A stretch of 64,000 nt of DNA from Holosporaceae bacterium (GCA_031258575.1 JAIRMQ010000029.1:727-64726); one strand, 5' to 3'. Positions 20,788 to 30,653 are shown, numbered from the stretch's first letter. Numbers and translations: made by a program. Notes: generated from the letters alone by a model not told the origin.

Positions 20788-22254
20788 ATGTCTGAAAATA
20801 TCGGAGAAATTTTATTCAAGAAAAATCTCTTAACGAAAGAGCAAATCGCTGTAATTACCAAGTCTCAAAAAAAATCAAATTTGCTCTTCGGACAACTTGC
20901 CGTCGTTCTTGGTTTTATGAGCGAAGATGATTTGATCAATGTTTTATCGGAACTTTATTCAATAGAAATAATAAATCTAGAATTTTTATATATAAATAAA
21001 GAGACTCTGATGTTAATTCCATATGAATTAGTTATATCGTGTCTTGCTATACCTTTTTTTGTCGATAGAAAAACCATAAAAATCGCTGTTGCGGATCCTG
21101 GAGACTTAAAGGCTATAGATTTAATTAATTCGCACATAAGAAACAAAAAAGTGCAATTTTTTATCGCCAGAAAAACTGAAATTCTCAGACTGTTAGAGAT
21201 AATAAAATGTGACGGAAAAAGTATTGATAAAGATCCTCTTCTTTTACTCAATAAAATCATTTTCGATGCAATGGAGTCTAGAGCAAGCGATATACATTTT
21301 GAACCTTTAGAAAATATGATACGCGTTCGCATAAGAGTGGATGGAATTCTTCGTATTTTGAAAAATATAGATTTTGATTCGTGGATGAGAATTAAATCCA
21401 AACTAAAACTTATTTCCAATCTTGATATAACAGAAAATCGAAGACCTCAAAGCGGACATACGCGTATTTTTTTGGCTGGGAAAAGCGTAGATTTAAGAAT
21501 ATCTACTCATCCTGGAATATATGGAGAAAATTTCGTCATTAGAGTTTTCGATCTTTCCAATGGAATTAGATCATTAGCGGACTTAAAGTTTCCGGAGGAG
21601 GATTTTTTATGGCTCAAACGTGTTATTGCTTTTCCCTACGGGATTTTACTAATCGTTGGCCCCACTGGGTCTGGAAAAACCACTACTCTATATTCCCTAT
21701 TGAGGGAAATTAATTCCCCTACAGTTAATATCATGACGTTGGAGGATCCTGTCGAATATCAAATTGAAGGAATAAAACAACTGGATTTACGTGAAGAAGG
21801 AATCCTATCTTTTTCAGATGGAGTAAGATCAATTTTGCGCCAAGATCCTGATGTAATGCTAATTGGGGAAATAAGAGACGAAGCAACAGCTTCATCTGCC
21901 GTGCGTGCTTCTCTTACTGGAAGATTAGTTTTAGCCACGTTACATGCATCTACACCAATCGAAGGAATCAGAAGGTTAGTCGATCTTGGTCTTAAATTAT
22001 CTGATTTCGTTCCATCTTTGATCGGAATTTTTTCTCAACGCTTAGTTAGATGCGTATCAAATATTGAGGGAAGATTCCCAATAACAGAATATATATTTTT
22101 TTCGGAAGAATTAAAGCAAAGTCTTTTAAGAAATAGCGATACGTCTATCTGCAAAGCGGATAAATCTTTTCATGATTCTGCCAAGTATGCACTGGATAAT
22201 AATCTAACAACTTTAGCTGAAATTACAAAGGTTTTGGGAAATGCCTCTATATAA
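20788..22254 (+). CDS. GspE/PilB-family secretion/pilus-assembly ATPase
   Basis: N-terminal T2SSE_N-like helices (IGEILFKKNLLTKEQIAVI, LFGQLAVVLGFMSEDDL). Walker A GPTGSGKTTT, Asp box MTLEDPVEYQIEG, Walker B/His box ILRQDPDVMLIGEIRD and LATLHA. There is no CxxC pair anywhere in the protein. Confidence 0.92.
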   Translation: MSENIGEILFKKNLLTKEQIAVITKSQKKSNLLFGQLAVVLGFMSEDDLINVLSELYSIEIINLEFLYINKETLMLIPYELVISCLAIPFFVDRKTIKIAVADPGDLKAIDLINSHIRNKKVQFFIARKTEILRLLEIIKCDGKSIDKDPLLLLNKIIFDAMESRASDIHFEPLENMIRVRIRVDGILRILKNIDFDSWMRIKSKLKLISNLDITENRRPQSGHTRIFLAGKSVDLRISTHPGIYGENFVIRVFDLSNGIRSLADLKFPEEDFLWLKRVIAFPYGILLIVGPTGSGKTTTLYSLLREINSPTVNIMTLEDPVEYQIEGIKQLDLREEGILSFSDGVRSILRQDPDVMLIGEIRDEATASSAVRASLTGRLVLATLHASTPIEGIRRLVDLGLKLSDFVPSLIGIFSQRLVRCVSNIEGRFPITEYIFFSEELKQSLLRNSDTSICKADKSFHDSAKYALDNNLTTLAEITKVLGNASI

Positions 22255-23413
22255 ATATCAAGTTCTAACTAAGAGCGGTGAGAAAAAACACGGTATTTTA
22301 TTGTCTGATGATTATAAACAAGCCTATGAAGTTCTGCATAGCAAGCAATATTTACCGATAAAAATAAAAAAAATCTATTGCACTTCTCGAAAAATTTCTC
22401 CAGAAAAATTATTGATGTTTTTCATGCATATCGAATTGCAGTTAAAATGCGGAGTAAGAATTAACGATGCAATAGAATCGTTCTCTGGATTTCAAGAGGA
22501 CCGAATTCTAAATGCTTCGCTTGTTGATATTGCAGATCTCCTTAAAAGAGGAGAAAGCATAAGCGATGCTTTTGAAAAATGTCACGCCATCTTTGACGAT
22601 GTTATTATTGGATTATTCCGATCTGCGGAAAATACCGGAGAAATTTTGGATGTTATTACGAACATATTAAAATTTTTAAAATTGCAAACAGAGTGGAGAG
22701 ATAATGTAAAAAGAGCGATCGCTTATCCGATATTTATAACGATTGTTGCGATATTAGTTCTAATTATTAGTGTAGGGGTCCTAGGACCTCAGGTTATTTC
22801 CCTTATTCAAATTTGTAACAATGGCGAAATTCCAATTCTCACGCAATTTACTATAAACATACTGCCCCAAATTTTTGAAATAGCTTGTGCTTTTTTCCCT
22901 GCGTTATTATTAATCCTAGTAATCGTTTTATTAAGTCGAAAAAATAGAAGTCTTTTTCTCCTCAAAATTCCAGTTATAAAAAAATTAATAACTCAAATTG
23001 TTTTGTGGAATTTTTATAAGATTATGCACATAGCTTTATCCGCGAAGTTAGATTTTATACAAGCGCTAACTTTGGCGATAGACGCTGTAAAATTTGATTC
23101 TATAAAAAAAGAACTGGAAAATATTCGCAATGACATAATTGATGGATATGGAATTTCAGAATCATTTTCTGAAAAAGAATTGATCCCCGCTGAAGTTCTT
23201 ATGGTTATTCGAATAGGAGAAGAAGGTAACGATCTTAAAGAGAGTTTTTATTATATCAGTGATGATCAATATAAAAGAATATTATTAGATATTGAAGTAT
23301 TAGGACGCAGGCTAAGTATAGGTTTAACAATCTTTACAGGTCTGATATTCATTTTTATTCTTTGCACTCTTTTTTATCCAATTTATAGCTATATCGAGAT
23401 TGCGAGTATGTGA
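22241..23413 (+). CDS. GspF/PilC-family inner-membrane platform protein
   Basis: 390 aa with two GspF-type repeats separated by TM helices (SDAFEKCHAIFDDVIIGLFRSAENTGEI and ISESFSEKELIPAEVLMVIRIGEEGNDL). Overlaps the ATPase gene by 14 nt. Confidence 0.88.
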   Translation: MPLYKYQVLTKSGEKKHGILLSDDYKQAYEVLHSKQYLPIKIKKIYCTSRKISPEKLLMFFMHIELQLKCGVRINDAIESFSGFQEDRILNASLVDIADLLKRGESISDAFEKCHAIFDDVIIGLFRSAENTGEILDVITNILKFLKLQTEWRDNVKRAIAYPIFITIVAILVLIISVGVLGPQVISLIQICNNGEIPILTQFTINILPQIFEIACAFFPALLLILVIVLLSRKNRSLFLLKIPVIKKLITQIVLWNFYKIMHIALSAKLDFIQALTLAIDAVKFDSIKKELENIRNDIIDGYGISESFSEKELIPAEVLMVIRIGEEGNDLKESFYYISDDQYKRILLDIEVLGRRLSIGLTIFTGLIFIFILCTLFYPIYSYIEIASM

Positions 23414-24522
23414 TGTATATTTTTCGAGGAGAAAATAAAGAAAGAATATTCGATAAAATACTCGATAAAAACCCCGCTGGAATTATCTTAGATAAAAGCA
23501 GCATATCTTTCTCTTCAGAACGATTGCAGAAATGTTACGTATGGGATGCCTACAGCGCGTTAAATTGCAAGAAAAAAATATTATCTTCCACAGAAAAAGC
23601 TTTTCTGATTTTCCCAGATAGAATTTTCAAAAAATCTGATTTCTACATTCAAAAAATTTCTTTTCCCGAGGAATTTTTATCTGGGGAAACAGATATATTT
23701 TTAACGGAAAAGGTCATTGCAGAATTTTGTAAGAGTCTTGACGTTATCGATGAAAAAACTCAATGGTTGTATGCAGCGAATCATAAATCTAGTGGATTAA
23801 GAATAATTGTAGGATTTGGTGGTAGCATAATTTTAACAAGGTTTTTACCTCAAAACTCGGAAATAGAAAAAGAGATTTCTAAGACAATAATTTATCTACG
23901 AAGATTCGATATAAATGGGAAAATTAAAATATTTACTCCGTTTTCTAAACTTCAATTAGCTGCACTGACGAACAGTGAGATAATTCATATTGAAAAATAC
24001 GAGGATGCGGAAGAAGCTATAGCAGATTTTCTATCAAAGAATCGAAAAATAAAACCAATTTATGGAAAACGGTTTTCTTTTGATGATCCACGTATACTAA
24101 CTTGGTCCGGAATAATTTCCGTTGTTTTTGCGGGCGGAATTTTCTATTTGAAAGAATCTATAAAAGAGAACGAGCATATTATTACTGAGCTTAGAAAGGA
24201 TGTAACTATTTCGGCAAAGCACATTAAAATAATAGCAAACTCTGAAAATTTTTCTTTCTTAAAACAATTCATAAATGAATTTAAAAGCTCTTATAATCCA
24301 GTAAAAATGCTACAAAAAATCTCACAACCATGTCGCGAGTATAACCTAAATGTAGAAGAAATTTCATTTAGTAAAGGAGCGAAAATCAAAGCTTTTCTCT
24401 CTAAAAAACAATTAAATGAACTAAAGGAAAATAAAGGAATAAAAATAGAAGAGATCTCAGAAGATAAATACGAAGAGATTGGAAAAAATGAAAAAGTGGG
24501 AGTATTAATTTGTATAGATTGA
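23410..24522 (+). CDS. Hypothetical bitopic membrane protein, GspL- or PilM/PilN-fusion-like topology
   Basis: 370 aa. About 228 aa are cytoplasmic, preceded by a basic stretch (KNRKIKPIYGKR). A single TM helix spans aa ~229-246 (ILTWSGIISVVFAGGIFY), followed by a periplasmic part of ~124 aa. The start overlaps the platform gene stop (GTGATG). Confidence 0.6.
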   Translation: MMYIFRGENKERIFDKILDKNPAGIILDKSSISFSSERLQKCYVWDAYSALNCKKKILSSTEKAFLIFPDRIFKKSDFYIQKISFPEEFLSGETDIFLTEKVIAEFCKSLDVIDEKTQWLYAANHKSSGLRIIVGFGGSIILTRFLPQNSEIEKEISKTIIYLRRFDINGKIKIFTPFSKLQLAALTNSEIIHIEKYEDAEEAIADFLSKNRKIKPIYGKRFSFDDPRILTWSGIISVVFAGGIFYLKESIKENEHIITELRKDVTISAKHIKIIANSENFSFLKQFINEFKSSYNPVKMLQKISQPCREYNLNVEEISFSKGAKIKAFLSKKQLNELKENKGIKIEEISEDKYEEIGKNEKVGVLICID

Positions 24523-25202
24523 GATTAATGCTTGTTCCATTATTGGGCTTTTTCCTGCTAAAGGACGTGATAGTCTTATGTGATCTACAGGAACTTAGAA
24601 AACGCTTATCAGATTCCCAAAAAGCAATAGAGATTTTTTTAAAAAAAATCGAAACGCTCCCGTATTTAAAATCAACAAAAAAAATTTTTAATACTAAGAT
24701 TGATCCAAAACAAGTTATAGAAAAAATCTCCGGTCGCTTGAAAGTTCATAAAACCTTAGTAAAGCAAGGCTCTTCAATCGAAGAAATTAAAATACTTTCA
24801 AAGCAGGAAGACGTGGTATATAGATTTATAGAAGATTTACTTTTTGAGTTGCCTGGCATAATACAATTTGAATCCATAAAAATCTCGAAAAATAATAAAG
24901 AATTATCCGCTACGATACAATTAAAAGCGTTTCAATTATTGAATGTCCGTGATTTTGTTAACATAGATTCGTCGGATGAAAAATCGGATACGTCATCCAT
25001 AAAATTATTTTTTTCAGACGAAAAAAGAAAACATAATTTATTGTGTACTTTAGAAAAAGCAAAAGCTTACATAAATAATTCATGGTTTCAACTAGGTGAT
25101 GCAATAGAAGACCGCAGATTGATTGGAATATACCAAAATTACATTGAATTACAACGCAGCAATGGCGATAAAACTATAATAAAACTCGGAGAAATGTGGT
25201 AA
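24510..25202 (+). CDS. Hypothetical N-terminally anchored protein, GspM/PilO-like with a PilP/GspC-like tail
   Basis: 230 aa with a TM helix at aa ~4-24, then a coiled-coil-like segment (LQELRKRLSDSQKAIEIF). The C-terminus is beta-strand-like (NSWFQLGDAIEDRRLIGIYQNYIELQRSNGDKTIIKLGE). Overlaps the previous ORF by 13 nt. The start is uncertain (TTG 24510 or ATG 24528). Confidence 0.55.
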   Translation: MYRLRLMLVPLLGFFLLKDVIVLCDLQELRKRLSDSQKAIEIFLKKIETLPYLKSTKKIFNTKIDPKQVIEKISGRLKVHKTLVKQGSSIEEIKILSKQEDVVYRFIEDLLFELPGIIQFESIKISKNNKELSATIQLKAFQLLNVRDFVNIDSSDEKSDTSSIKLFFSDEKRKHNLLCTLEKAKAYINNSWFQLGDAIEDRRLIGIYQNYIELQRSNGDKTIIKLGEMW

Positions 25203-25203
25203 T

Positions 25204-26124
25204 CTAAAATTGGTTAGCGAACATCTCTAGCGAATCCAGCGAATTTACATTTATTGAGTTAATTTCTGGAGAAATGCGTTTTACTAATCCTGTAAGAACT
25301 TTCCCTGGACCTATTTCGATGCATTTTTTCACAGAATTTGCTTCTGCGAAAAGAATACTTTCTCTCCATCTAACTCGATTGGTAATTTGCTTTACTAGAA
25401 GATCTTTAAAGTTATTAGATTCTGCTATAGCAGTAACATTAGAAATAATAGGTTTTGCAGGAGGATTAAACGAAATTCCACACAATGCTTCTGCAACCTC
25501 CTTGGCCGCTTTTTCCATTAAAATAGAATGAAATGGACCGCTTACTTCTAATAGAACAGTTCTGACATTCGCTGCCATTTTCATAACTTTTTTCACAGCG
25601 TCTTTATGCCCGCTAATAACGATTTGTTCAGGAGAATTGTCATTCGCGATCTGAACTATTTTATCCATAGAGGAACACTCCTTAACATTTTTCTCAAGTG
25701 TTTCAATATTCATTCCTATTATAGCAGCCATTGCACCATCAACTGGACAAGCTTTTGCCATTGCATAACCACGAGTTCTCAGAATTTTAGCGGCATCGGA
25801 GAGGGCTATTGCTCCACTAGCGCATAGAGCAGTACATTCTCCTAATGAATGTCCCGCAAGAAAACGTGTTTTCGCTAGAAGATTTACGTTAAATTCTTTT
25901 TCTAGAACTCGGACAAAAGCCATACACACAGCCATAAGTGCTGGTTGCGTATTTTTAGTTAATTTTAGGTCCTCCGGAGAACCATTGAATATTAAATTCG
26001 ATAAGTTGAAAGAAATCGCTTCGTCTATTTCATGAAAGACATCACGAGCGCTACGAAATGCATCATATATATCTTTTCCCATTCCGATCTTTTGAGATCC
26101 TTGACCGGGAAATACTATCAGCAT
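25204..26124 (-). CDS. fabD: Malonyl-CoA:ACP transacylase
   Basis: FPGQGSQKIGMG, active-site GHSLGE, and the overall FabD layout. Confidence 0.95.
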   Translation of the reverse strand: MLIVFPGQGSQKIGMGKDIYDAFRSARDVFHEIDEAISFNLSNLIFNGSPEDLKLTKNTQPALMAVCMAFVRVLEKEFNVNLLAKTRFLAGHSLGECTALCASGAIALSDAAKILRTRGYAMAKACPVDGAMAAIIGMNIETLEKNVKECSSMDKIVQIANDNSPEQIVISGHKDAVKKVMKMAANVRTVLLEVSGPFHSILMEKAAKEVAEALCGISFNPPAKPIISNVTAIAESNNFKDLLVKQITNRVRWRESILFAEANSVKKCIEIGPGKVLTGLVKRISPEINSINVNSLDSLEMFANQF

Positions 26125-26132
26125 ACCTTCTC

Positions 26133-28289
26133 CTATGCTACTCGCCTTTCTTTTTTTAAGGTTATTAGGACTTCTGATATGTAAAACTTAGGTAAAATAC
26201 GAATGCCTGATTTTTCTGCGGAATTCCGTACTTTTTCTTTATTGTAAAAACCAGTCACAAGAATCGATTGTTTCTGCATGTTATTCTTTTCTATAAAAGT
26301 GATTCCATTTACATCATTACTTTTTAATTCATAATCTACTAATAAAAGCATCCGCTTTTTCTCCTGTACTGTTTCTATAAAATCCATGGCCTCCTGGTAC
26401 TTCGAAAAGCATTTAATACTAATATCACCACTGTAATCTTTTAAGCGGCGCTCCCAAATATAATGTATCAATGGTTCATCATCAACTATCACCACAATAT
26501 TTCCCTTATGCAAGATGATCTTACTGGCAAACCAGTGAGGTTTTTCGGAAATCGGAATAGTAATGATAAAATCTGTGCCTACCCCCATTTCGGACAGCAC
26601 TTCTAAATCTCCATTCATTTTTTCTAACGTTGACCTAAGCTGAGTCAGACCAACACCATATCCACCGATTTTATCGCTTGCGACTCGTGCCTTATTCATA
26701 ATTTTTTCTATGGTTTCTTTGGGCATACCTTTTCCATTGTCTCTTACGAGAATTTTTATATTACTTACATCCTTTGAAATAAGAATATCAACGCTTCCGC
26801 CCGATTCTTTTCTAAGCGCTTCCAGTGCATTGTCTATTACATTTGAAATCATTCGTTTGAACGCCATTTTATTTCCTTTCACGAAAATATATTCTTCGTT
26901 GTTAGGACAGGAATAGTTGATTTTTAAGTTCCACATTTCATATTCCTTTATCTTTTGGCTTATGATATCCAACAGCGTTGGATGAACTTCAATATATTCT
27001 TTATACGAATTAGCTTCCTCGGTATTGATTGCTTGTAAACCATTTTTACAATCTCCATTTGAATATTTCTTATGTTTATCCAAAAGATCATTAACTATAA
27101 TATTCACGCTTTCTATTAAACTTTCTAAAAATTTTACATCTTTCTCCTTCAATTCCTTGCAAATTTTAACGAAAGTAGACAAAGCCGCAATAGGAGAACG
27201 GATATCATGCACTACTTGCTCACTGATACTTCTTAATTTTTCTTGTACTTTATTTCGAAGCTCAAGTTTTTCATTCTTTTTTCGTTCTGTAATATTAACT
27301 GCAAGACCAATTACTCCTTCTACCTTTCCCTCTATTATTAACGGAGATTTAACTACAAGATAGCTAATTCCAAGATATTCTTCTTCTGTGATTATTTCTT
27401 TCCTTGTTTTCAAAATATCAGTTGTTGTCTTCCAAGCCTGGGCATTTAGCTTTTTGGCATTATTACCTCCAATAACTTGATCCAAAGCGTAATTTTTGTA
27501 GATATGGTTGCCATATTTATCTATGACGAAAAAATTAACATTGGATACAGTTTCTTTCATAAAACGAGAAACTTCCGCATTCAATATTTCTGCATTCAGA
27601 TCGCTGTGTTTACAACTCTTCTGAGATTGCTTAGACGTTTTATAACGAAGATGTTTAATGCTTAGTTTATAACGTTTTGCTACGTCCTCCATTGATCGTG
27701 CTAAATTCATCGGGTATACCAAAACCGTAGGATTTTGAAAGTTTACACATATATACGCGAGCTCTTCCAGCAAAAAATCTATACTACAAGAGAGCTCGTT
27801 ATTGCCTTTATATGCAGCTATCGAAGCATCTGATATGACAAGATCTCTAAAACTTAGGATAAGCCCTTCACCATTCTGATCTCCCGCATAGTCTTTTAGT
27901 ATTTGTTTATGCCATTTTTTAAATTCGTTCGAACTAATACCCTCTATCCACGGCTTTACTACAGTATCAACTTGTAATTTGTTAATGGATTCTTTATTTT
28001 TAGCGAGCCATAAAGTTTCTATAGAAGGATCGGAATAAGTATTAAAATCCGGAATAACGTGCCTGTACAAATACGAAGTATCGACGATATTAATTTTTTT
28101 TAGCTTTTTCTTTGTCTCTTCGAGATTTAGTGAATTAACCAAATCTTCGAATCCTTCTCCACTTTGACTACTGCAACCATACGATATAACTGCATTTAAA
28201 GTTATACTTCTCTCTGCGGCTGCATTAAAGAATTCAAGGGCTTCTTCACTCCATTTCACATGTCTATTTTCTTCCATATCCACCTCCAT
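26133..28289 (-). CDS. Soluble hybrid sensor histidine kinase/response regulator with an unassigned N-terminal domain
   Basis: No TM helix. aa ~1-245 are unassigned and aa ~245-335 are PAS-like. H-box VVHDIRSPIAAL, N-box NVIDNALEA, G1 DNGKGMP, G2 GGYGVGL. The C-terminal receiver domain has VIVDDEP, LLLVDYEL and ILPKF. Confidence 0.9.
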   Translation of the reverse strand: MEVDMEENRHVKWSEEALEFFNAAAERSITLNAVISYGCSSQSGEGFEDLVNSLNLEETKKKLKKINIVDTSYLYRHVIPDFNTYSDPSIETLWLAKNKESINKLQVDTVVKPWIEGISSNEFKKWHKQILKDYAGDQNGEGLILSFRDLVISDASIAAYKGNNELSCSIDFLLEELAYICVNFQNPTVLVYPMNLARSMEDVAKRYKLSIKHLRYKTSKQSQKSCKHSDLNAEILNAEVSRFMKETVSNVNFFVIDKYGNHIYKNYALDQVIGGNNAKKLNAQAWKTTTDILKTRKEIITEEEYLGISYLVVKSPLIIEGKVEGVIGLAVNITERKKNEKLELRNKVQEKLRSISEQVVHDIRSPIAALSTFVKICKELKEKDVKFLESLIESVNIIVNDLLDKHKKYSNGDCKNGLQAINTEEANSYKEYIEVHPTLLDIISQKIKEYEMWNLKINYSCPNNEEYIFVKGNKMAFKRMISNVIDNALEALRKESGGSVDILISKDVSNIKILVRDNGKGMPKETIEKIMNKARVASDKIGGYGVGLTQLRSTLEKMNGDLEVLSEMGVGTDFIITIPISEKPHWFASKIILHKGNIVVIVDDEPLIHYIWERRLKDYSGDISIKCFSKYQEAMDFIETVQEKKRMLLLVDYELKSNDVNGITFIEKNNMQKQSILVTGFYNKEKVRNSAEKSGIRILPKFYISEVLITLKKERRVA

Positions 28290-28542
28290 ATTTGAAAATT
28301 AAAAAAGCGACGCCTCCACAAAATAACAAAGCAAAGGCAGATCCTACGAGGAATATCCAATCACCCTTGATGTATCCATGTAGAACAGAAAACACTTGTA
28401 CTATACAAAAACCAGAAAACGTCACAGGAGAAAGCCCGTCTGCATTTTTAGTTTTGTATATCTTGATTGCCTGAGGAACAAAAAGGGCGGCGTTAAATGC
28501 TAAACAAAAAGCAAACACAAACTCAACAATCACCACGAACAT
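28264..28542 (-). CDS. SemiSWEET-like PQ-loop mini-transporter (3 TM)
   Basis: 92 aa with three hydrophobic helices and a PQ motif at the end of TM1 (FVPQAIKIYKTKNADGLSP). The stop overlaps the kinase start by 26 nt (14 nt if the kinase starts at its second Met). Confidence 0.7.
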   Translation of the reverse strand: MFVVIVEFVFAFCLAFNAALFVPQAIKIYKTKNADGLSPVTFSGFCIVQVFSVLHGYIKGDWIFLVGSAFALLFCGGVAFLIFKYGGGYGRK

Positions 28543-28747
28543 ACAAGGGCCCTTACTATTTTTTCAGAGTTAATCCCGCATAAAAACTACACACCTACAC
28601 GAGTACTACCACTGTTTGTTTTTTATAGTAGCTTTTGCATGCGAAGTCAATATTAATATTTTATTAATTATTTCCCGAACACAGACGTTCTTTTATGGAA
28701 TTTTAGAGGGTATAATGGTCTGTTTCTATTGGACTTAATAACAGATC

Positions 28748-30343
28748 ATGAAATGCTCTTTCGGGCTGAAATTTCAGCGAAAAATTACAGGAACAAGTAG
28801 GATTTTCTTTAATAATATTCTTGTTTTTTTCCTGATAATTTTTCCAGATATTTTATATCGAGCGAACTTGCATGTGAATGCAATGTCCTTTTTCTTCGTA
28901 ACAACTATGGCCTTCGCGATATGCCTTTGTTGTCAGAGGAAAATACTAAGGTTCATGCTCTCTTTTTTTTCAATTATTCAAATTATTCAATTTTGCCATA
29001 TTAAGTATTTTGGAATATTAATATCAACGTCTTCTTTGTATCTTTTAGAAAAAGAAATATTAGATGTTTCCTATGAAGTTATGGATCTTTTCATTTCTTA
29101 CTTTCCCATCCTTCTAACATGCGTTCTTTCTTTCGTGTTAATATACAAGATTTATCCTACATATCCCAAAGAAAACATTAAAAGTACATTGGGATCAATA
29201 TTACTGATCGCCAGCAGTATTCTTTATGTATCGATAATAGACGGACAGCTCGACTTCACTCCAAATCCCACAAGATTCGCTTTTGAAAATTCCATTAAAA
29301 CAGTTTGTGGATATATTTATTCAAAAGTGGGGAAAATACATAAATTTAATAACTATAAAGCGTACTCTGTTGAAAGAATAAAACCTATAAGCAATGATCC
29401 AGTAACAATAGTTTATATACTTGGGGAAAGTTCTAACAGCGAGCATATGTCCTTATTCGGATATGATGAAGACACTACACCAAATTTAAGGAAAATGTTT
29501 CAATCGGGTAACGTGTATTGCACGGTTGGAATTGCAGGAGCGGTATCGACGATTTCTTCCTGTAAATTCATGTGCAATGCCATTAGAGAGCCTGATAATA
29601 TAAGACAAACATCGTCTGATACAACGAATTTATTTAGATTGGCGAAGGAAAGTGGATTCAAAACTTTTTACATATCGGCTCAGCAAAATAATCTTTGTTC
29701 ATCAGTTGGGGGAACTCCTTACATCGATGTTTTAATCACAAGAATGCGATATCCAAAGGAATTTAGTTATCAGAGAGATACGTTTCTGCTGGACATTATA
29801 GATAAGCAGGAATTTACTGATAAAAATTTCGTAGTAATTCATCAACGCTGTATACATTCTCCATACAGAAAAACCGTTCCTAATAGTTTTTGCACGCCGT
29901 CTAGACAAATAAAGCACCGTGATACATTATTGTATAACAACGCTATGGTGTATAATGACTATGTTATATCAAGTCTTTTTGGTAAATTTAATAAGTCGAA
30001 AAATAAGTTCTATATATTCTGGACATCCGATCATAATGAATTAACAGGACAAAATGGATTGTACGGACATGGACACCTATTGCTGGCATGTGCGAGAATC
30101 CCAATAATTATTCAAAGTAACGATCAAGATTTTTTATGCGAGATTAGAAAAAAGCATTGCTTAACTCATTATGATATATGCAGTACAATAATAGGTCTGT
30201 TTGGAATGCGGATTATAAATCCCAACGAAGAAAAAGAAATCTACTACATAAACGGTATTGATTATGATGGAAAATGCGGATATATAAAGATTAAAATACC
30301 TCAAAATGGAGATGTTACTGTGCGTGAGACAATATCCAAATAA
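28748..30343 (+). CDS. Phosphoethanolamine-transferase-family membrane protein (EptA/LptA-like, sulfatase fold)
   Basis: N-terminal multi-TM domain plus a periplasmic sulfatase-type domain with IVYILGESSNSEHMSLFGYDEDTTPNL and WTSDHNELTGQNGLYGHGH. The nucleophile region (VGIAGAVSTISSCKF) diverges from the usual GT(S/A)T. Confidence 0.8.
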   Translation: MKCSFGLKFQRKITGTSRIFFNNILVFFLIIFPDILYRANLHVNAMSFFFVTTMAFAICLCCQRKILRFMLSFFSIIQIIQFCHIKYFGILISTSSLYLLEKEILDVSYEVMDLFISYFPILLTCVLSFVLIYKIYPTYPKENIKSTLGSILLIASSILYVSIIDGQLDFTPNPTRFAFENSIKTVCGYIYSKVGKIHKFNNYKAYSVERIKPISNDPVTIVYILGESSNSEHMSLFGYDEDTTPNLRKMFQSGNVYCTVGIAGAVSTISSCKFMCNAIREPDNIRQTSSDTTNLFRLAKESGFKTFYISAQQNNLCSSVGGTPYIDVLITRMRYPKEFSYQRDTFLLDIIDKQEFTDKNFVVIHQRCIHSPYRKTVPNSFCTPSRQIKHRDTLLYNNAMVYNDYVISSLFGKFNKSKNKFYIFWTSDHNELTGQNGLYGHGHLLLACARIPIIIQSNDQDFLCEIRKKHCLTHYDICSTIIGLFGMRIINPNEEKEIYYINGIDYDGKCGYIKIKIPQNGDVTVRETISK

Positions 30344-30653
30344 TAAAAAGATTAACGAGAGAAAAGAAAACAACTGCACTTCCTATATCTTTTGCTTTTT
30401 TAGAAAGAATATGTTTTTCGGTTCCTATGCGATCTATTACGCTCTCTATCGCCGAGTTAATCCCCTCACATATCAGCACAAAAATAAACGAAGAGAAGAT
30501 ATATATTCGCATTAGAGAGGAGCAAGGGAAAAGAAATTCGGCAACTAATATGATAAAGCCGAGTAATAGCTCTTGCTGAAAAGCTCGTTCCTTCAATAAG
30601 TACTTTATACCGCTCAACGAATATAGAAAGGCGTTTTTCAAACTATGAAACAT
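30315..30653 (-). CDS. dgkA: Diacylglycerol kinase (prokaryotic DgkA)
   Basis: 112 aa, 3 TM, with EGINSAIESVIDRIG and KKAKDIGSAVVF. Convergent with the EptA-like gene and overlaps it by 29 nt. Confidence 0.9.
   Translation of the reverse strand: MFHSLKNAFLYSLSGIKYLLKERAFQQELLLGFIILVAEFLFPCSSLMRIYIFSSFIFVLICEGINSAIESVIDRIGTEKHILSKKAKDIGSAVVFFSLVNLFIIWILSHAQ

Follow-up and report, generated by a model that had tools for sequence, protein, structure and literature searches.

Cyclodipeptide synthases (CDPSs), which form small cyclic dipeptides from charged tRNAs, are known as stand-alone enzymes of ~30 kDa, and several of the structurally characterised members of their XYP subfamily come from intracellular bacteria. 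Reviews and a global CDPS cluster analysis report fusions to methyltransferases, P450s, ABC transporters and an unknown C-terminal domain, and kinases go unmentioned there. Bacterial SemiSWEET sugar uniporters, such as those of E. coli (4X5M), Leptospira biflexa (4QNC) and T. yellowstonii (4RNG), share a length of ~90 amino acids (aa), three transmembrane (TM) helices and a PQ motif after TM1. Here we describe a locus in which the two families meet, at positions 25,204 to 28,542 of a 64,000-nucleotide (nt) stretch from a Holosporaceae bacterium (GCA_031258575.1, JAIRMQ010000029.1:727-64726). This stretch, hereafter the window, is contig 3 of an 874-kb metagenome-assembled genome (MAG) that is 95% complete. 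The locus is a two-gene unit, in which the gene of a SemiSWEET-family facilitator is followed by an overlapping gene for a soluble protein whose CDPS domain, unlike the known stand-alone enzymes, is fused to a PAS hybrid histidine kinase. Full-text searches of the literature found no description of a CDPS-kinase fusion, or of a link between a CDPS and a histidine kinase or two-component system. These known parts in an undescribed combination suggest a signalling module that makes, releases and senses its signal, and that recurs in endosymbionts of gut protists. The unit has the following features:

28264 to 28542, minus strand: SemiSWEET-family PQ-loop protein with three TM segments, 92 aa, first gene of the unit (Pfam PQ-loop, PDB matches, hydropathy).
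26133 to 28289, minus strand: soluble CDPS-PAS-HisKA-HATPase-REC protein, 718 aa from the first ATG and 714 aa from M5.
28264 to 28289, minus strand: overlap, shared by the 3' end of the SemiSWEET gene and the 5' end of the kinase gene, read from the sequence.
27615 to 28262, minus strand: CDPS domain of XYP subfamily type, residues ~10-225 (profile against the PDB, AlphaFold2 (AF2), Foldseek).
27285 to 27548, minus strand: PAS domain, residues ~248-335 (weak Pfam PAS_4, AF2, Foldseek).
27060 to 27284, minus strand: DHp/HisKA domain with the phospho-accepting His361 in VVHDIRSP (Pfam HisKA; H361, D362 and P366 conserved).
26544 to 27002, minus strand: HATPase_c catalytic ATP-binding (CA) domain (Pfam, 69.8 bits).
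26154 to 26507, minus strand: C-terminal REC domain with the DD, Asp (LLLVDYEL), Thr and Lys positions (Response_reg below cut-off; family alignment A1).

The identity of the N-terminal domain was established by profile and structure comparison. A profile of the kinase family searched against the PDB matched 5ocd, a "cyclodipeptide synthase", and the profile of the N-terminal domain (A2) matched the sequences of five solved XYP CDPSs, with E-values of 2.1e-8 for 5ocd, 6e-8 for 5mlp (over residues 28-220) and ~2e-6 to 4e-6 for three Nocardia brasiliensis chains (5mlq, 9i5m, 9iam). The AF2 model of the domain, built from 32 homologous domains, had a pLDDT of 91.9 and a pTM of 0.87. This separate model was used for Foldseek, as the full-length model matched kinases only. 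Its best 35 matches in the PDB were all CDPSs, with TM-scores of 0.71-0.73 to 5ocd, and TyrRS and TrpRS were among the matches after these, as expected for this Rossmann-type fold, which is related to that of class Ic aminoacyl-tRNA synthetases. Overall, the XYP CDPSs of Rickettsiella grylli (5MLP), Fluoribacter dumoffii (5OCD) and N. brasiliensis (5MLQ) have the fold in common with the window domain (Foldseek TM-scores of 0.64-0.73) and share with it the motifs D-T-x-Y-L-x-R-H, W...N, x-L-E-E and Y-P.

The window domain also retains the catalytic Ser, Glu and Tyr-Pro of the XYP enzymes, as seen with the residue numbering of AlbC as defined in PMC11580168. S36 (AlbC S37, the serine on which the aminoacyl intermediate is carried) aligns with the G-I-S serine of 5mlp and is at least 90% conserved, as is E176 (AlbC E182), whose neighbour E175 is invariant. 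The family motif F-x-L-E-E aligns with Y-x-L-E-E of 5ocd, 5mlp and 5mlq, and Y192-P193 (in VYPM) corresponds to AlbC Y202-P203, the XYP signature, in line with VYPS, TYPG and IYPQ of the solved XYP enzymes. The domain differs from these enzymes at two positions. The catalytic tyrosine (AlbC Y178) is replaced by Phe172, which is invariant in alignments A1 and A2 and at least 90% conserved in A3, and the position of AlbC G35 is Val34 in the window protein and Val or Ile across the fused family. The AlbC Y178F and G35A variants are poorly active, with Y178F still forming some acyl-enzyme (PMC3105412). Judged from these comparisons, we regard CDPS identity of the domain as almost certain; its fold and family membership are secure, whereas its full catalytic competence is not. 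A further difference from the XYP enzymes is that PF16715 misses the window sequence, and a Pfam scan of the isolated N-terminal 248 aa returned nothing at E-values up to 10. Because Pfam misses it, the CDPS domain is absent from the annotation of the family, whose members are named in databases as "PAS domain-containing", "HAMP domain-containing" or "GHKL domain-containing" histidine kinases, or as hypothetical proteins.

In the remainder of the protein, the HATPase_c domain passes its Pfam cut-off at 69.8 bits, HisKA stays just below (25.2 vs. 26.9 bits) and Response_reg is also below (23-27 vs. 30.2 bits), while alignment A1 shows the H-box His, the ATP-binding N/G boxes and, in the REC, the residues DD/D/T/K. 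The PAS domain of the window protein is a weak PAS_4 match, that of its paralogues a clear one, and the assignment is supported by an AF2 beta-sheet at residues 251-332 and by Foldseek matches to LOV/PAS kinases. With its family signature NVNFFVIDK.G..IYKN ... YLSVKSPL ... GVIGLA.DIT.RKK, it is the best conserved part of the fused family, at 54% mean identity compared with 49% for the CDPS and 35-38% for the DHp, CA and REC domains. A preliminary description of this locus, made from the sequence alone, had proposed a kinase devoid of TM segments with the architecture unknown domain-PAS-HisKA-HATPase-REC. The protein indeed has no TM segment (maximum KD19 of 1.26) and the order from PAS to REC stands, but the domain called unknown is the CDPS. 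The same description saw no Hpt protein nearby, and this extends to the whole genome, in which the Hpt domain (PF01627) has no match; nine REC domains are present in total. The only phosphorelay candidate is a weak, sub-threshold ChpT-like ORF (open reading frame) of 17.9 bits at G000:C22:1653-1871. Some family members (P0002, P0005, P0021, P0023 and P0024, 809-825 aa) carry past their REC an extra C-terminal domain of ~110 aa (A1 columns 790-900), which resembles a second receiver in its DD...D pattern and is not found in the window protein.

The coupling of a synthase to this kinase is widespread among the relatives, in whose inspected loci one PAS-HisKA-HATPase-REC chassis occurs with five kinds of partner. 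The first is the fused XYP-like CDPS of the window and many other loci. The second is a Pfam-recognised CDPS (196 bits) fused to a PAS histidine kinase (PAS-HK) in genome G016; three further Pfam-type CDPS-kinase fusions were found among 5.8 billion proteins, annotated as hypothetical where named. In the third, genome G001 has the order SemiSWEET, separate 243-aa CDPS gene and PAS-HK-REC kinase, and this CDPS reaches 188 bits with PF16715 and is closest to YvmC (E 9e-27). The fourth is a 316-aa "type-3" N-terminal domain of kinases of ~770-930 aa in six genomes, one copy of which lies behind a SemiSWEET (L087). The type-3 domain (A4) is CDPS-like by hhalign against a set of stand-alone CDPSs (A5; probability 91%, E 1e-6), with no significant match in the PDB and a probability of only 2% against the fused family A2. 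The fifth, found twice in genome G010, is a gene for a nonribosomal peptide synthetase (NRPS)-like enzyme of formyltransferase-adenylation-thiolation-reductase type that abuts or overlaps the kinase gene. As this enzyme does not use tRNA, the logic that unites the partners would appear to be the product. The G010 protein is ~1580 aa long, with formyltransferase N and C domains, a partial condensation domain, AMP-binding and PP-binding domains and a terminal NAD_binding_4 reductase, and at both loci its gene immediately precedes that of a PAS-HK-REC kinase from the same clade (L100, G010:C16; L109 with L101, G010:C153). A phage-integrase fragment lies upstream of one of these two copies.

Outside the lineage, stand-alone relatives of XYP CDPS type, 270-380 aa in length, turned up in an exhaustive search with the domain; they match the Rickettsiella CDPS 5mlp with an E-value of 8.5e-38 and the fused family with 2e-46 (hhalign). 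Their cluster names are uninformative, and some of them also have Phe at the position of AlbC Tyr178. A called HisKA-HATPase gene directly follows the stand-alone CDPS in four of the five metagenome contigs that were looked up; in the fifth, the CDPS is followed by an unannotated ORF that is cut at the contig end and carries a PAS signature of the window type together with a match to the window kinase. DNA was readable for four contigs, the fifth among them, and in each the protein encoded downstream gives a match to the window kinase and shares its distinctive PAS signature, (V/L)N(F/L)F.IDK...Y..KN ... YLS(V/I)K.P ... VIG(V/I).G.S.D(I/T). One longer contig has a REC protein after the kinase. 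The CDPS and the PAS-kinase are thus a conserved unit, which plasmid-like elements carry as two genes and endosymbionts as one fused gene with a REC added. That the linkage of synthase and kinase is conserved, whether in one fused gene or in two neighbouring ones, is in our assessment highly probable. A phylum-wide sample of 400 genomes contained only one other A5-like CDPS, and the ORFs within 1.5 kb of it are all too short for a histidine kinase (none >293 aa; the ORFs are unannotated).

Three of these contigs (L115, L116/L117 and L118) are 3-6 kb long with ~35-38% GC and carry a Rep3-family replication gene along with the stand-alone XYP-like CDPS and the PAS-HisKA-HATPase kinase, with ParA on one of them. 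These contigs resemble small plasmids with the CDPS-kinase pair as their only cargo. Among the 62 CDPS-kinase loci, 33 are labelled Candidatus Endomicrobiellum or Endomicrobium (Elusimicrobiota; L030, L035, L038, L041, L052, L053, L058-L065 and L072-L086), and many of these are fragmented or located at contig ends (e.g., five ORFs in L085 and a 146-aa fragment in L081). In the tree of CDPS domains they interleave with the alphaproteobacterial copies, a pattern that fits the horizontal transfer described between co-resident flagellate endosymbionts (PMC11257099), although mis-binning may also play a part. Since the cassette is found in split form on very small plasmid-like contigs and in fused form in two endosymbiont phyla that are unrelated, we regard it as a mobile, self-contained module. 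A 323-aa metagenome protein annotated as "CheY-like chemotaxis protein" (P0087) has a degenerate CDPS-like domain fused directly to a REC. PADLOC defence models gave no meaningful match for the kinase, SemiSWEET or CDPS proteins, and a reading of the cassette as a defence system, without support from these models, was set aside.

The 92-aa protein had been described as a three-TM PQ-loop protein of SemiSWEET type, which our analysis bears out. It reaches 38 bits with the Pfam PQ-loop model (cut-off 22), shows three hydrophobic segments in its hydropathy profile, aligns over its full length with solved SemiSWEETs (9kax, E 1.5e-5; E. coli 4x5m, E 2.2e-5) and also matches the structures 4rng and 4qnc. 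It does not reach the cut-off of the NCBIfam model SemiSWEET_2 (34.6 vs. 80 bits). In contrast to the known SemiSWEETs, it does not have the Trp and Asn of the pocket: the positions of W50 and N66 in the E. coli protein, which we take from the published structures to be the sugar-binding residues, are Ser52 and Ser68 here, and in the family the former is S, T or A and the latter variable. Other polar membrane residues, E7, N17, Q49, H55 and D61, are conserved in the window-type family instead. The gene also differs from those of known SemiSWEETs in its operon partner, a synthase-kinase rather than sugar metabolism genes.

The adjacency of the two genes was followed in relatives through a search for SemiSWEET homologues, which gave 15 strong matches in 14 genomes, with enough downstream sequence at 13 loci to judge. 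At eight of these 13, a synthase/kinase unit directly follows on the same strand, at distances between a 42-nt overlap and 79 nt (-54 to +85 nt covers most cases), and the reverse search from the CDPS domain in GTDB genomes found a SemiSWEET directly upstream in 12 of 62 loci, including ruminant-gut MAGs. The flanking genes differ at every SemiSWEET-kinase locus examined (EptA and fabD in the window; elsewhere GyrB/SBP, GST/LpxB, GrpB/unknown, Obg/DnaK and unknown/another kinase), and the SemiSWEET stays in front while the synthase type downstream changes (fused XYP, separate NYH, type-3). Strong SemiSWEET matches were confined to genomes with the kinase clade (14/21 vs. 0/20; Fisher p 4e-6, uncorrected for phylogeny). 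The adjacency that the preliminary description had reported is therefore conserved in relatives, at no fewer than eight loci with differing flanks, in several genera and in ruminant-gut relatives, and its authors' view that such a pairing was undescribed agrees with our full-text searches, in which no description of a SemiSWEET-kinase pairing or of a SemiSWEET-cyclodipeptide link was found. The SemiSWEET link is real but facultative. In genome G010, a 231-aa ORF follows the SemiSWEET homologue on the same strand after a gap of 172 nt (L014:990-1685, G010:C22); it belongs to no Pfam family, resembles neither the CDPS nor the kinase references, and may be another type of partner. Ahead of the second CDPS-kinase paralogue in the window genome, ~3 kb (L089 6100-9238, G000:C33) hold only ORFs of 133 aa or less and may be eroded sequence.

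At the window locus itself, three minus-strand ORFs (28264..28542, 26133..28289 and 25204..26124) were recovered with the coordinates reported earlier, and so were the position of the SemiSWEET stop inside the first kinase codons and that of fabD 8 nt past the kinase stop on the same strand. The stop, TAG at 28266-28264, lies within the kinase ORF, and the overlap is 26 nt counted from the first kinase ATG or 14 nt from a start at M5. The latter, the fifth codon (ATG 28277-28275), is the likely start of the kinase, because a GGAGG at 28287-28283 precedes it with a spacing of 5 nt and the starts of homologues and of the gene callers agree. With a start at ATG 28277, the ribosome-binding site (RBS) of the kinase and its first 14 nt would therefore be inside the SemiSWEET gene. 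As the pairing is both tight (overlapping frames and internal RBS) and conserved, a functional link of transport and cytoplasmic sensing is reasonable. Two further features complete the locus:

25204 to 26124, minus strand: fabD, malonyl-CoA:ACP transacylase, 306 aa (TIGR00128).
28543 to 28747: divergent intergenic region of 205 bp between the SemiSWEET gene and an EptA-like gene, candidate promoter region of the unit.

The intergenic region contains a candidate promoter on the minus strand (TTGACT-17-TATAAA, 28650-28622), from a consensus scan that yields generic matches only. The fabD gene (292.1 bits with TIGR00128, cut-off 260.9) begins at an ATG 8 nt past the kinase stop, which is spanned by an AGGAG, and is probably co-transcribed with the unit here. 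The earlier description of fabD as an orphan holds insofar as acpP, fabG and fabH are located on three other contigs. We considered fabD as a member of the module and rejected this: no other examined locus has it beside the kinase, so that the window genome is unique in this respect, and the fab genes are scattered in general. Its adjacency thus appears incidental, given the dispersal of fab genes in a reduced genome. On the other side of fabD, a four-gene operon for a GspE/GspF-like secretion or pilus platform (window 20788-25202) converges on it, the final two ORFs of which have no Pfam match. The EptA-like phosphoethanolamine transferase gene (Sulfatase domain; NCBIfam P_eth_NH2_trans; window 28748-30653 region) diverges from the SemiSWEET gene, and a 112-aa ORF that by eye resembles DgkA (diacylglycerol kinase) converges on and overlaps the transferase gene. 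EptA-type transferases and DgkA are a known functional pairing. Close homologues of the window proteins are labelled Holosporaceae bacterium and come from termite-gut metagenomes, and the window genome probably belongs to the lineage named UBA3830 in PMC11257099.

The reading that we favour is a circuit in which a self-made cyclodipeptide is the signal, the SemiSWEET-like protein its membrane facilitator and the cytoplasmic PAS kinase its receptor. It is favoured because the partners of the kinase all make small amino-acid-derived molecules, the PAS travels with the XYP CDPS and the facilitator has no sugar pocket. The CDPS domain would use two aminoacyl-tRNAs to form, perhaps slowly, a cyclodipeptide (2,5-diketopiperazine), and the SemiSWEET-like uniporter would equilibrate this small uncharged product across the inner membrane. 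The PAS domain, co-inherited with the CDPS, would read the cytoplasmic level of the product and set the autophosphorylation of His361, from which the phosphoryl group would pass to the Asp of the protein's own REC and then to a further partner, for which the ChpT-like ORF is the only candidate. Such a circuit could serve an intracellular symbiont as an autoinducer or confinement-sensing device, with fabD as an incidental downstream passenger. The preliminary description had suggested transport-linked sensing of a host metabolite. A SemiSWEET tied to a soluble kinase is retained from this proposal, but a cyclodipeptide of the cell's own making is a likelier solute than a host metabolite, because the domain is a CDPS and the chassis is repeatedly coupled to small-molecule synthases.

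Several observations weigh against this circuit. Because of Phe172 and Val34, and the poor activity of AlbC with Y178F or G35A, cyclodipeptide output of the fused domain may be low or nil. About 50 of the 62 CDPS-kinase loci have no adjoining SemiSWEET, and neither does the second CDPS-kinase paralogue of the window genome (on contig C33). With synthase and receptor in one chain, sensing would occur in cis unless the product left quickly, the genome offers the phosphorelay no Hpt partner, and a CDPS with a kinase on Rep3 plasmid-like contigs of 3-6 kb is unusual cargo for a signalling circuit. Taking the mechanism as a whole, we see its chances of being right or wrong as evenly balanced.

Among the alternatives, the one that survives best is a sensor of charged tRNA, in which the CDPS-like domain would be a poor catalyst and would bind aminoacyl-tRNA or be aminoacylated on Ser36 as the input to the kinase. 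The phosphorelay would then report amino-acid or tRNA-charging status, and the SemiSWEET would import an amino acid or other solute from the host. The near invariance of Phe at Tyr178 and the lack of Gly35 in the fused family fit this well, since both changes cripple AlbC and Y178F leaves some acyl-enzyme; the CDPS domain also occupies the sensor-domain position of the kinase under strong constraint, and the genome is reduced and host-dependent (874 kb). Additionally, the putative first-pocket residues I68, D70, A178 and C181 are nearly invariant among paralogues, which would fit one ligand class. On the other hand, the sister arrangements have a fully canonical CDPS (G001, G016) or a tRNA-free NRPS-like enzyme, thus suggesting that the common denominator is the product and not tRNA. 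Some stand-alone relatives have the same Phe, which thus need not mean a loss of function in the subfamily, and a membrane facilitator as partner is a better fit to a diffusible product. We therefore consider a charged-tRNA sensor unlikely, although it deserves to be kept in mind. Its most complete version, drawn by analogy, is slightly less probable still; there, the domain would be a pseudo-enzyme or half-reaction enzyme that reads aminoacyl-tRNA, giving a two-component kinase that senses tRNA charging with a GCN2-like logic and that was acquired and multiplied by unrelated gut-protist endosymbionts.

Alternatively, the kinase could regulate biosynthesis: the PAS domain would sense some other cue (redox or a metabolite), the kinase and REC would switch the CDPS, and the product, a secreted effector, antimicrobial or chelator, would leave through the SemiSWEET-like channel unsensed by its producer. 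CDPS clusters often contain exporters and regulators, and active CDPS domains occur in larger multidomain proteins (PMC5816076). Small plasmids often carry antimicrobial genes, as would the Rep3 contigs with their split CDPS and kinase pairs, and the SemiSWEET partner is suited to export. However, the type of PAS co-varies with the synthase, the XYP-associated signature being found from plasmid contigs to endosymbionts while the NYH-associated and type-3 kinases have another PAS domain; this is expected if the PAS reads the product or state of the synthase. The N-terminal position is also typical of inputs, and the plasmid kinases have no REC that could act on the enzyme, which makes regulated biosynthesis rather improbable. 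Lastly, the absence of any functional link, with an ordinary sugar uniporter sharing its promoter with a lineage-specific kinase through inherited synteny, might explain why five of the 13 SemiSWEET loci have no kinase downstream and most CDPS-kinase genes no SemiSWEET, gene overlaps being common in compact genomes, but is very improbable for a pair that persists while both flanks change at every locus examined and while synthase types are exchanged (fused XYP, separate NYH, type-3), whose SemiSWEET is limited to genomes with the kinase clade and is missing the sugar-binding Trp and Asn.

CDPSs have been treated as enzymes of secondary metabolism, but in this locus a CDPS is built into a two-component kinase, and genomes of <1 Mb from which most biosynthesis has been lost still keep it. 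This argues for its product, or its act of tRNA binding, as a signal rather than a natural product. The locus could thereby bring to light cyclodipeptide signalling through a receptor that is identified, as well as a non-sugar substrate class for SemiSWEET proteins; were the charged-tRNA sensor the true reading, it would be a case of direct sensing of charged tRNA by a histidine kinase.

Among described systems, the pulcherriminic acid locus of Bacillus, yvmC-cypX, resembles the window unit in grouping a CDPS with a dedicated regulator and an exporter, YvmA, which is of the MFS type. That regulator is a repressor of the MarR type, and the Bacillus locus has neither a kinase nor a fusion. The eIF2-alpha kinase GCN2, with its HisRS-like domain, likewise joins a fold of aminoacyl-tRNA synthetase (aaRS) type to a protein kinase, a likeness by analogy only: GCN2 is a Ser/Thr kinase rather than a histidine kinase, the aaRS class differs, and GCN2 senses uncharged tRNA through its HisRS-like domain whereas CDPSs bind charged tRNA. 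For the PAS domain as receptor, VqmA of Vibrio, whose PAS domain binds a pyrazinol autoinducer, is a precedent for a six-membered, amino-acid-derived N-heterocycle as ligand. Finally, LqsA-LqsS of Legionella and CqsA-CqsS and LuxM-LuxN of Vibrio also link the gene of a small-molecule synthase to that of a histidine kinase, and in the Vibrio pairs the kinases are hybrid as well. The Lqs, Cqs and Lux kinases are membrane receptors that sense the outside, and their synthases are separate proteins of other families. In the window, by contrast, synthase and cytoplasmic receptor form one protein, a signal derived from tRNA is presumed, and a SemiSWEET-type facilitator is the partner.

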